Origin: Nitrospirota bacterium
GTDB taxonomy: Bacteria; Nitrospirota; UBA9217
Reading direction: 5' to 3'
NCBI GenBank assembly: GCA_963741205.1
Contig: CAVUHW010000027.1
Coordinates: 1 to 64,000 of the forward strand
DNA length: 64,000 nucleotides
In this document: one piece after another, positions 52,722 to 55,950 of the stretch
Layout of the letters: every line of letters starts with the position of its first letter
Numbering within the stretch: position 1 is the stretch's first letter
The notes under the pieces: generated by a model
What the model was told of the DNA's origin: nothing
Databases searched by the model: none
Seen by the model: only the letters and a program-made list of their open reading frames with translations
Position numbers and translations under genes: made by a program

Positions 52722-53723
52722 ATGCCAATCAAAGTTGGAATTAACGGTTTTGGAAGGATCGGAAAACTTTTTTTTCGTGCAAGCCTCAACAATCCGGCCG
52801 TAGAAGTTGTCGGCATCAATGATCCCTTTATCGACCTTTCATACATGGTCTATATGCTCAAGTACGACACCGTGCATGGTCGTTTTAAAGGCGACGTGGG
52901 AATCAAAGACGGAAAATTAATGGTCAACGGCCGGGCCATCAGCGTATTTGCAGCCATGAAGGCCGATGAAATTCCATGGACGTCCTGCGGTGCGGAATAT
53001 GTGCTCGAATCCACCGGCATATACACGGAGATTGATAAGGCCGGCGCCCACATCAAGGCCGGTGCAAAACGCGTGGTCATCTCGGCCCCTTCAAAGGACG
53101 CCCCCATGTTCGTGATGGGCGTCAATCACGACAAGTACAAGGGCGAGAGCATAGTCTCCAATGCATCCTGCACGACAAACTGTCTGGCCCCTGTGGCAAA
53201 GGTGCTCAACGACAACTGGGGTATTGTTGAAGGACTCATGACCACGGTCCACGCCACCACAGCCACGCAAAAGACGGTTGACGGTCCTTCCAAGAAGGAC
53301 TGGCGCGGCGGCCGCGGAGCAGCGTTCAACATCATCCCCTCCAGCACCGGTGCTGCAAAGGCGGTCGGCAAGGTGATTCCCGAGCTTAACGGCAAGCTGA
53401 CCGGCATGGCATTCCGCGTCCCCACCGCCGATGTCTCGGTCGTTGATCTGACCTGCCGTCTCGCAAAACCGGCTAAGTATGATGATATAAAAGCTGCGAT
53501 GAAAAAGGCCTCTGAAACCACCATGAAAGGGATACTGGGATATACCGAGGACGAAGTGGTCTCTTCTGATTTTATCGGTGAGACCTGCACCTCTATCTTT
53601 GACGCCAAGGGGGGCATACCGCTTAATGACAACTTCGTCAAAATCATTGCATGGTACGATAATGAGTGGGGATATTCCAATAAGTGCGTTGACCTTATCG
53701 TCCATATGGCGTCTGTCAAATAA
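52722..53723 (+). CDS. gap: NAD-dependent glyceraldehyde-3-phosphate dehydrogenase (type I)
   Basis: [34 protein letters not shown]. Confidence 0.98.
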
Positions 53724-53741
53724 ACTCCTAAGGAGTATGCT

Positions 53742-54176
53742 ATGAAGATCCTGACGACACCCAGAATGGAGCGCTGCATCGGATGCCACTCCTGCTCCCT
53801 TGCCTGTGCACGCCTGGTGCACAAGCGGCTTTCCTGGGATACGGCCGGAATCCGTATCCGGTCATCGGGCGGATTGTCCACCGGCTACGAGGCTCGGACC
53901 TGCCTGGCCTGCGACCCGGCGCCCTGCGCTGAGGCCTGTCCGACGGGAGCGTACTCGCAGAGGAAGGGCGGGGGAGTGCTCGTGCGCAAGAACCTCTGCA
54001 TTCGCTGCGGGGAGTGCGCCAAGGCCTGCCCCGTGGATGCCATCTTTCTCGACGCTACCCGGGAACCTTTTGTCTGCATCCACTGCGGCCGGTGCGTTCC
54101 CTTCTGCCCGCATGACTGCCTGGAGATGAAAGAAGTCGCAACAGCAGAGCCTGCGCGGCAGGGAGGTGCGTCATGA
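53742..54176 (+). CDS. 4x[4Fe-4S] ferredoxin-like subunit (GorS-like)
   Basis: CIGCHSCSLAC, CLACDPAPCAEACP, CIRCGECAKACP, CIHCGRCVPFCP; overlaps the next gene (ATGA). Confidence 0.9.
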   Translation: MKILTTPRMERCIGCHSCSLACARLVHKRLSWDTAGIRIRSSGGLSTGYEARTCLACDPAPCAEACPTGAYSQRKGGGVLVRKNLCIRCGECAKACPVDAIFLDATREPFVCIHCGRCVPFCPHDCLEMKEVATAEPARQGGAS

Positions 54177-55950
54177 TCAGGGATACTTTCAGGGTACTCG
54201 TGGTTGACCTCGGAACCGGCCGCGGCAATGTCGTAGTGCTCGACGGAAGAAACACCGTGGCAGGCGGCAGCGGACTTGCGGCGCTCCTGTTCACCAAATA
54301 TGGACATGCAGACAAGCCGTGGAACGATCCTGTTCAGCCGCTCATCTTCGCCATTGGCCCGTTGACGGGCTACTTCCCGCTCATGAGCAAGACGGTCTGT
54401 GCCTTCAAGTCGCCTTACCACGACCAGTACGCGGAAAGCCACGCTGGCGGCCGTTCGGCGCTCGCACTTCGCTTTGCGGACCTGGACGCGCTGGTCGTCA
54501 CGGGCAGGGCCGCGAGACCTTCCGTCATCTCGATCGGCTCGCGTCATCTGGAGGTGAAGGATGTCCACTACCTCTGGGGACGGGGCGTCTTTGCCACCGG
54601 CAGAATGATGCGCGGCATGTTCAAGGGGGCGGGACACAGGAGCATCCTGCGCATCGGACCAGCGGGCGAGAACGGCTCCGCCATGGCCGGCATCAATGCC
54701 GATACCTACCGCCATTTCGGCAGGCTGGGAGGCGGCGCAGTGATGGGAAGCAAGAACCTCAAGGGCATCGTGATCAATGGCGACGGGGCGTTCCCGCTTT
54801 CGGATTCCAAGGAATATCCAAAACTGTTTCAGGATGTCTATGAGAAACTCACCGACACGGACATGATGAGAAAGTACCATGACATCGGCACGCCCATCAA
54901 CGTGGCGGTGTTGAATGAGGTGAAGATGCTGCCCATTCGCAACCTTCAGCGGACTACCGATCCCGCCATGAGCGGCATCACGGGAGAAAAGTTTGCCGAG
55001 CTTGCGCTTCTCCGGAACTCGGCCTGCGCAGGCTGCCCGGTGGGTTGCATCCACATTGGATTCGTGCGTGAGCAATACCGGAAGGAGGAACATCGTTATA
55101 TTTATCGGCAGGTCTCCTATGACCATGAGCCGATCTTCGCCGTGGGGTCCATGCTTTCGGTCGAGAACTGTTTTTCAATACTCGCCATTATTGACGTCGC
55201 TGAAAAGGTGGGGCTTGATGTGATGTCGGCGGGCGTGGCCCTTGCCTGGGCCACCGAGGCCCTTGAAAAGGGGATCATTTCGGAAAAGGAGACGATCACC
55301 AGGCTCTCCTTCGGCGACAGCGAAGGGTACAAGCAGGCGATGCAGCACCTGGGCGAAGGGAAAAACGACTTCTACCGCCTGCTTGGTCAGGGTACGCTCA
55401 AGGCCGCGGAACACTACGGCGGAAAGGACTTTGCCTGCGTGCTCGGCCAGGAGATGGGGGGATACGCAACAGGTGAGGTCTTCTTCGCCTCCCAGGCGCT
55501 TGGCTTCCGGCACTCTCACCTGGACACCGGCGGCTACTCCTACGACCAGAAGGAGAAGAGCAAGGACCCGGCAAAAGCCGTGGACTTCCTGGTGAAGGAT
55601 GAACAGGGGAGGGTCCTGCTCACCTCGATGGTCGCCTGTCTCTTTGCCCGCGGCGTCTATCCGATGCCTTGCTGGCGGAATGTCTCAAGTCTGTGGGTTA
55701 CGGCGCGCTCGCCGACAGTCTCGATGGGGTATCCAAGAACATCCAGCAGCTCCGCTGGAGGACGCGCGTCGCCACGGGTTACCGGCCTGAGGACGTGACG
55801 ATCCCGAAGCGCTTCCTCGAGATCACCACCGGCAAGGGGCCCATGGACGGCGTCTACTTGGCCGCCCTCAAGGAACAGTACGCGAAGGCCATCAGAGGCC
55901 TTGCGGCCCCGGCTACGGAGGTCCCGCCCGCGGGGAAGCAGGAGGGTTGA
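54173..55950 (+). CDS. W/Mo aldehyde:ferredoxin oxidoreductase-family catalytic subunit (GorL-like; indel near 55665)
   Basis: IFAIGPLTG, ESHAGG, IGPAGEN, GRLGGGAVMGSKNLKGI, CAGCPVGC, YDHEP, GLDVMSAG. Confidence 0.88.

Follow-up and report, generated by a model that had tools for sequence, protein, structure and literature searches.

We identified a worS-worL gene pair in a stretch of 64,000 nucleotides from a Nitrospirota bacterium (contig CAVUHW010000027.1, positions 1 to 64,000; this whole stretch is called the window below), and by its genomic context the encoded enzyme, WorSL, is most likely a GOR-like oxidoreductase that transfers electrons from glyceraldehyde-3-phosphate (GAP) to ferredoxin. 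The reaction would be GAP + H2O + 2 oxidised ferredoxin -> 3-phosphoglycerate (3PG) + 2 reduced ferredoxin, and the electrons would pass from the pterin site to the [4Fe-4S] cluster of WorL and on to the four clusters of WorS. The substrate, direction, metal and electron acceptor are predicted from sequence, namely from the gene content, the subunit architecture, the cofactor and second-shell residues, the conserved neighbourhoods, and the gap and pgk genes observed elsewhere in the genome. In the literature consulted, descriptions of ferredoxin-dependent GAP oxidation come only from hyperthermophilic archaea and fermenting thermophilic bacteria, for example Caldicellulosiruptor bescii.

The GOR-like assignment is supported because the worSL clade is recurrently linked to genes of the Embden-Meyerhof-Parnas (EMP) route, the Entner-Doudoroff (ED) route, glycogen turnover and lower glycolysis, without pgk or tpi. 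In a scan of one genome per species, 585 relatives were found, and the counts per 80 loci given here use the best 80 of 585 (63–90% identity), which are labelled as Desulfobulbales, Desulfobacterales, Syntrophobacterales, Syntrophales, Syntrophorhabdales, Desulfovibrionales and Nitrospirota. Neighbouring open reading frames (ORFs) were clustered, the clusters were named by Pfam (20 representatives scanned), and every locus was then searched for each family. The worS gene lies 5' of worL in 78 of 80 orthologous loci, and the remaining two are cut by contig ends. Lower glycolysis is represented near worSL by pyk (21 loci), gpmA (9) and eno (6), and upper EMP by fructose-bisphosphate aldolase (FBA; 12), 6-phosphofructokinase (PFK; 8) and glucose-6-phosphate isomerase (PGI; 8). 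Glycogen genes are glgP (12), glgX (7) and phosphoglucomutase (PGM; 6), and ED genes are pgl (8), edd (7), eda (6) and zwf (4). Fermentation end steps are also found: ackA (8), pta (6), ADP-forming acetyl-CoA synthetase (6), pyruvate:ferredoxin oxidoreductase (PFOR; 5) and two lactate/malate dehydrogenase (LDH/MDH) families (8 and 5). At least one core sugar-phosphate gene is nearby in 43 of 80 loci; among the 51 loci that span 15 kb or more, 32 have such a gene. When the fermentation end steps are counted as well, the number rises to 60 of 80.

The genes for the triose steps and for the conversion of GAP to 3PG are rare in these loci (gap 3, pgk 1, tpi 0). GAP to 3PG is the step regularly missing from the clusters, and it is the reaction catalysed by a GOR-type enzyme. 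Directly 5' of worS in the nearest relatives is gpmA, whose product consumes 3PG. The linkage takes an EMP form in 15 loci and an ED form in 9 loci, never both together, and the genes occur in many orders, indicating repeated selection rather than one inherited arrangement. In order to compare, we applied the same queries and thresholds to the organism's own genome, where a core sugar gene is found in 16 of 185 windows of 21.5 kb. In a second control, a paralogous worS-worL clade (41–46% identity), a core sugar gene is found in 1 of 16 loci, even with a looser threshold. The direction would be catabolic because the partner genes are catabolic (pyk, ATP-dependent PFK, glgP and glgX). A first-pass annotation of this DNA had already proposed a GOR-like, ferredoxin-linked GAP enzyme beside GAP dehydrogenase (GAPDH), taking the adjacency of gap and the lack of pgk in the window as its clues. 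The first clue is weak: gap is found near worSL in no more than 3 of 80 orthologous loci, and it was not seen in any of the 7 loci from the window's own class. The proposal itself now draws its support from the recurrent sugar-gene linkage without pgk or tpi and from the two controls.

Within the window, the stop codon of gap (53723) is separated from the start of worS (53742) by 18 nt, while worS and worL overlap by 4 nt and are translationally coupled. The coordinates, cysteine motifs and AFOR domains thus confirm the arrangement described in the first-pass annotation, in which gap is followed by a subunit with four [4Fe-4S] motifs coupled to an AOR-family subunit. It was also correct that the window lacks pgk: the gene is absent from the contig, and a phosphoglycerate kinase (PGK) family search of the genome gave matches only on two other contigs, C13 and C26. 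However, the suggestion that worSL occupies the place where pgk would normally be was not borne out, since a canonical gap-pgk-tpi operon is present on C13 and a second pgk on C26. The genes gap, eno, pyk, PFK and ackA each occur again elsewhere in the genome, and the gap in the window is 49.5% identical to that of the C13 operon (tblastn against the genome). Because gap-pgk-tpi is found elsewhere, the window represents an accessory second glycolytic set, not a sole set in which pgk was replaced. All 5 of the other carrier genomes tested likewise encode PGK and GAPDH elsewhere, which indicates, on genomic evidence, that the WorSL route would be parallel to the classical one.

WorS is a protein of 144 amino acids with 17 cysteines in four CxxCxxCxxxC-type motifs. 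Its full-length matches in PDB include 6x1o_B (the small Fe-S subunit of Pyrococcus furiosus WOR5; E 1.8e-13), and it also matches the small Fe-S subunit 9mqx_E. It carries no twin-arginine leader, as the N-terminus enters the first cysteine motif directly. No flavin subunit is encoded between gap and worL, which agrees with the class II layout, in which the operon lacks an FAD/NAD subunit. WorL contains PF02730 (AFOR_N; E 2.5e-55) and PF01314 (AFOR_C; E 8.6e-43). The [4Fe-4S] ligands C285, C288, C292 and C489 are each kept in all 96 or in 95 of the 96 rows aligned, and in all 23 rows of the superclade to which WorL belongs. The second-shell residues of this superclade are also well conserved (T240 in 23 of 23 rows, E319 in 22, Y431 in 21 and H449 in 21); T240, E319, Y431 and H447/H449 of WorL map to T243, E313, Y427 and H448 of P. 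furiosus aldehyde ferredoxin oxidoreductase (PfAOR). All four second-shell residues are reported to be kept in the GOR clade, and only the Thr and Glu in archaeal GAP ferredoxin oxidoreductase, GAPOR (PMC12096430), so that on this description the pattern of WorL would be that of the bacterial GOR rather than that of archaeal GAPOR. Many clade-specific changes exist in WorL, for example RHSH at 446–449 and GYxTG replacing PAYDPR. From these features, WorSL is probably a cytoplasmic two-subunit (class II) oxidoreductase with a W- or Mo-pterin, the metal being a prediction.

When 1.84 billion cluster representatives were searched, 5104 matches were obtained, in which about 20 representatives at 34–58% identity are clearly set apart from the rest at about 32%. 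In our trees, 73 other AOR-family representatives fall outside the WorL superclade, a separation that has 100% SH-like support, and the same split is obtained with named members added. Grouping with broad-specificity AOR or formaldehyde ferredoxin oxidoreductase (FOR) clades, which the first-pass annotation had named as one outcome contrary to a GOR, was not observed: WorL stands apart from the other AOR-family representatives, and the solved AOR and FOR structures that it matches are distant. Inside the superclade, the clade of the window is supported at 100% and sits on a long stem. Separate from it is a Firmicutes branch with Thermosyntropha, Syntrophothermus, Pelotomaculum, Desulfosporosinus and Alkaliphilus, and the named Firmicutes members are 45–48% identical to the representative P0132. 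The third branch holds archaeal sequences (Thermofilaceae, Bathyarchaeia and Asgard) together with the paralogous worSL clade. Scott et al. 2019 reportedly found GOR homologues in 44 mostly anaerobic bacterial genera. Homologue searches with two low-GC superclade representatives led to the archaeal branch in one case and to the Firmicutes branch in the other, the latter with no Caldicellulosiruptor sequence among the 120 matches listed. The names available for the 20 cluster representatives are generic, and the ESM Atlas clusters are named only 'aldehyde ferredoxin oxidoreductase'. A 'GAPOR-like' lineage of Thermoproteota and Caldarchaeales has been described as structurally close to the C. 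bescii enzyme (PMC9246946), which fits a position of C. bescii GOR within the WorL superclade but does not show such a placement.

The paralogous clade groups with Thermoproteota, Bathyarchaeia and Asgard sequences and lacks sugar-gene context; among its neighbours, nothing is conserved beyond the genus level. The phylum sample of 301 genomes has 29 carriers of this clade. Its loci (L133–L148) come from 16 genomes of the same phylum, and 14 of 14 sampled genomes of one small-genome family carry it.

In the mechanism that we propose, WorSL would oxidise the triose within a glycogen-to-acetate module that is accessory and laterally shared. The module would begin with glgP, glgX and PGM and continue through FBA and PFK (in other lineages zwf, pgl, edd and eda), WorSL, the products of gpmA, eno and pyk, and finally those of pta and ackA. 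Such a module would operate in parallel to the housekeeping GAPDH and PGK, and for every triose it would forgo one ATP to gain low-potential electrons.

Several points weigh against this reading. No core sugar gene is found in 37 of 80 loci, including all 4 labelled as Desulfovibrionales, and 20 of 80 have neither sugar nor fermentation genes; many of these loci are short. Related genomes are non-independent samples, and the trees do not include C. bescii GorL or PfGAPOR. Superclade membership alone does not predict function, as the paralogous clade without sugar context indicates. In the alignments, no basic residues specific to the clade were found that would clearly indicate a phosphate site, and the adjacency of pta and ackA would fit an acetaldehyde/acetate enzyme as well. 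Within the window's class, 8 of 64 genomes carry an orthologue, and none of the 14 other genomes of the same genus does; the module could be mis-binned. Moreover, worL is frameshifted in this assembly. A search of public sequencing runs listed no RNA run holding it and a DNA share of 0.20 at best, and the contigs of four runs leave positions 55586–55717, where the frameshift is located, uncovered.

The frameshift is a 1-nt deletion near 55660, by which worL is divided into two ORFs (54173–55798 and 55663–55950) instead of one open frame. From its start at 54173, the first ORF follows the conserved frame up to near 55660; the conserved C-terminal part then runs in another frame to 55950. One extra base is present at this site in all four orthologous DNAs aligned, and the orthologues are 578–592 amino acids long. 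The deletion relative to these four orthologues, together with the patchy distribution of the module in its class, would also be expected if worL were a genuine pseudogene of this organism and the locus a decaying remnant, whatever the family does elsewhere. We consider this quite unlikely, as worL has no further stop outside the break and there matches an intact orthologue at 90% identity over 496 residues, and at least six frame breaks exist in conserved genes within about 25 kb (PGM 2, flavocytochrome c 2, the glgP C-terminus 1 and worL itself 1). Two related assemblies contain the same type of splits in pyk, gpmA and ackA, a pattern typical of indel errors. Because neighbouring genes are split likewise, the break in worL is most likely an indel error of the assembly. 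The same pattern means that ORF-based gene calls in this genome need care.

Among the other functions considered, a broad-specificity aldehyde:ferredoxin oxidoreductase would serve detoxification or acetaldehyde/acetate interconversion and would lie near fermentation genes owing to pta and ackA, not to GAP. The best solved match of WorL is indeed P. furiosus AOR (1aor; E 1.3e-48), all four second-shell residues are those of general aldehyde oxidisers, pta and ackA are both in the window and occur in 6 and 8, respectively, of the 80 loci, and most characterised family members are broad aldehyde oxidisers (PMC13328260). However, pyk (21), FBA (12), glgP (12), gpmA (9) and ED genes (4–8) are linked as often as or more often than pta and ackA, and often without them. 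The absence of the GAP-to-3PG step from the clusters (pgk 1 of 80, gap 3 of 80) and the position of WorL outside the clades that hold other AOR-family representatives also make such an enzyme unlikely. Linkage to sugar catabolism, including ED genes, is also what would be seen for an oxidoreductase acting on another sugar-derived aldehyde (non-phosphorylated glyceraldehyde, glycolaldehyde or lactaldehyde), as in non-phosphorylative ED variants, and the substrate range is not readable from sequence. This is very unlikely given that the ED genes found are those of the phosphorylative route (zwf, pgl, edd and 2-keto-3-deoxy-6-phosphogluconate aldolase), which yields GAP, that the closest conserved neighbour in the nearest relatives, gpmA, consumes 3PG, and that no glycerate kinase was seen among the neighbour clusters checked by Pfam (20 representatives scanned). 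Finally, WorSL might reduce 3PG to GAP with reduced ferredoxin and save the ATP of PGK in gluconeogenesis, to the advantage of an anaerobe short of energy; enzymes of the AOR family are able to use low-potential donors for the reduction of acids (PMC9295118). We regard reverse operation as extremely unlikely, as pyk, ATP-PFK, glgP and glgX, the partner genes, serve catabolism and are in effect irreversible, and GAPOR is reported to work in one direction only, its free-energy change being estimated at about -26 kJ/mol (PMC12525153).

For the preferred reading, WorSL as a GAP:ferredoxin oxidoreductase, the distribution of the module is informative about its origin. The patchy occurrence in the class and the genus indicates that the module is accessory, and an orthologue at 69% identity or more was found in 15 of 301 genomes sampled from the phylum. 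The WorL tree intermixes rows labelled as Nitrospirota and Desulfobacterota. In the loci L040, L063 and L051, eno is 97% and gap 91–92% identical to the genes of the window, whereas worL is only 70–71% identical. To judge from these sequences, the module looks laterally mobile and mosaic, with parts that would have separate transfer histories. A wider proposal, which we make only tentatively and hold as rather doubtful, is that the Desulfobacterota/Nitrospirota clade is a GAP-oxidising tungstoenzyme lineage apart from C. bescii GOR and archaeal GAPOR, spreading laterally within a portable, ferredoxin-yielding glycogen fermentation module of EMP or ED type. If this proposal is true, sulfate reducers, syntrophs and Nitrospirota would turn stored polyglucose into acetate and low-potential electrons when external donors or acceptors run out, and a physiological role would be assigned to one of the 38 class II WOR clades without a characterised member.

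If WorSL oxidises GAP as predicted, a ferredoxin-linked glycolytic bypass would be widespread in Desulfobacterota and Nitrospirota, with a genetic tie to the mobilisation of glycogen as well as to the EMP and ED routes. Models of how carbon and electrons from storage polymers flow in sulfate reducers and syntrophs would then change, with less ATP and more low-potential reductant for H2 formation or sulfate reduction, and a W or Mo requirement would be predicted for this flow. Cultured organisms exist among the carriers of worSL, which makes the reading testable there; intact orthologous pairs are found, for example, in Desulforhabdus sp. TSK, Desulforhopalus sp. IMCC35007 and Desulfobulbus sp. 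Tol-SR.

The genes of the window were named by profile searches (Pfam and TIGR/NF families) and tblastn, and those of the plus-strand cluster are summarized in the table below.

Features of the plus-strand gene cluster in the window, with the evidence for each assignment
Feature	Position	Strand	Evidence
glgP, glycogen phosphorylase	32973..35095	+	PF00343, 1052 bits, at 32973-34994 plus 34991-35095
PGM, phosphoglucomutase	36984..38623	+	tblastn with the PGM of locus L033: three pieces in frames 3, 1 and 2; PGM_PMM_II and III domains
FBA, class II fructose-bisphosphate aldolase	42365..43387	+	PF01116; NF006628, 466 bits (cut-off 297)
PFK, ATP-dependent 6-phosphofructokinase	43468..44694	+	PF00365, 208 bits; NF005301, 645 bits (cut-off 400)
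pta, phosphate acetyltransferase	44772..46856	+	PF01515; NF004167, 917 bits
ackA, acetate kinase	47062..48285	+	PF00871, E 8e-148
GNAT acetyltransferase	48488..49009	+	PF00583
pyk, pyruvate kinase	49025..50452	+	PF00224 and PF02887; TIGR01064, 504 bits
gpmA, 2,3-bisphosphoglycerate-dependent phosphoglycerate mutase	50510..51256	+	NF010713, 431 bits (cut-off 305)
eno, enolase	51309..52652	+	TIGR01060, 686 bits
gap, type I GAPDH, second genome copy	52722..53723	+	TIGR01534, 438 bits (cut-off 367); tblastn against the genome
worS, small subunit	53742..54176	+	four [4Fe-4S] motifs in the translation; Fer4 families
worL, pterin and [4Fe-4S] catalytic subunit, AOR/WOR family	54173..55950	+	AFOR_N and AFOR_C
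flavocytochrome c	56087..57979	+	TIGR01813, 351 bits; cytochrome c3-type haem and FAD-binding fumarate-reductase-like domains
glgX, glycogen debranching enzyme	60899..62788	+	TIGR02100, 718 bits (cut-off 641)

The cluster is larger than first described, as glgP, PGM, FBA, PFK, pta, ackA and the GNAT gene are located 5' of pyk, and glgX 3' of worL. The last 35 or so residues of glgP are in another frame (34991–35095). Two minus-strand ORFs, 43465–44775 and 32931–34919, were rejected as genes; they are antisense to PFK and glgP, respectively. The gene for the flavocytochrome c, which could be an electron sink, starts 136 nt past worL and is also found 3' of worL in 1 of 7 relatives' loci compared (L009; 71% identity). 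The GNAT gene is retained between ackA and pyk in the relatives L013, L014, L016, L028 and L045, and in another group of loci (L076 and similar) a GNAT domain is fused to ADP-forming acetyl-CoA synthetase; this recurrence may reflect acetylation control of the module. A scan of 42000–58000 gave 14 terminator-like sites (13.8 expected) and 11 promoter-like sites (5.8 expected), which were not used as evidence.

The rest of the genome was also searched for tungstate transport, pterin synthesis and hydrogenases, as the first-pass annotation had proposed. A TupA-like binding protein is encoded at C8:14044-14859 (264 bits, below the 400-bit equivalog cut-off). It is the last of three tandem PBP_like_2 frames (C8:12464-14859) beside a LysR-type regulator and the only one with a full TupA-like protein, while the first two frames are shorter and may be broken copies. 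No permease or ATPase genes adjoining the TupA-like gene were seen in the ORF list. The ORF just 3' of it (C8:15192-16436, plus strand) has an N-terminus that seems to resemble a family 1 beta-glucosidase. For pterin synthesis, two MoaA and three MoeA are encoded, which with the TupA-like protein could provide for the cofactor of WorSL. There are [NiFe] hydrogenase matches, two of them on the window's contig, and PFOR-type enzymes; no [FeFe] hydrogenase was found in the genome, which is 84% complete. One [NiFe] hydrogenase large-subunit match on the window's contig (C27:121227-122764) contains in-frame TGA and TAG codons, which may mark a selenocysteine ([NiFeSe]) site or result from further assembly errors. 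A second AOR-family gene (C20:213567-215312, minus strand) is about 26% identical to worL and groups with ordinary AOR-like representatives on a long branch.

Our search of the literature accessible to us found no earlier description of a WorSL-type enzyme in Desulfobacterota or in connection with glycogen, although the supplementary datasets of PMC13328260 may list the clade. Compared with known systems, P. furiosus AOR (1aor) and FOR (1b25; E 4e-45), the best matches among solved structures, share the fold family, the cluster cysteines and the second-shell residues with WorL, but they are distant from it, lack a small subunit and act on broad or short-chain aldehydes. WOR5/ASOR of P. furiosus (6x1o and 6x6u) is a class II heterodimer of large and small subunits, and its small subunit aligns with residues 3–123 of WorS; its large subunit is a weaker match to WorL (E 5.8e-29) and its substrates are aliphatic sulfonates (PMC13328260). 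Non-phosphorylating GAPDH (GAPN) also converts GAP to 3PG irreversibly without ATP, but it has the unrelated aldehyde dehydrogenase fold and uses NAD(P)+ instead of ferredoxin. Archaeal GAPOR (P. furiosus PF0464 and Methanococcus maripaludis; WOR clade 23, class I) has the same reaction as that proposed for WorSL and likewise bypasses GAPDH and PGK. It is monomeric without a WorS, whereas worL here is coupled to worS, and it is described as lacking the conserved Tyr and His region (PMC12096430), in contrast to Y431 and H449 of the WorL superclade.

WorSL also resembles GOR of C. bescii (GorL/GorS, Athe_0821/Athe_0820; WOR clade 20), which has the class II layout of WorL plus WorS (PMC13328260). 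Like WorSL, it consists of a pterin large subunit and a small subunit with four [4Fe-4S] clusters, is encoded by paired genes and is cytoplasmic, and it retains all four second-shell residues, as WorL does. The hosts are different: C. bescii is a thermophilic clostridial cellulose degrader, whereas the WorSL hosts are diderms labelled as Desulfobacterota or Nitrospirota, mostly from metagenome assemblies. The surroundings differ as well, since the C. bescii gor pair lies beside tungstate transport and pterin genes (PMC6391272), and worSL within glycogen, EMP, ED and acetate clusters. The C. bescii enzyme coexists with GAPDH and PGK (PMC13328260), comparable to the parallel role suggested for WorSL by the genomic evidence, and it oxidises GAP to 3PG with ferredoxin, the same role that we predict for WorSL.

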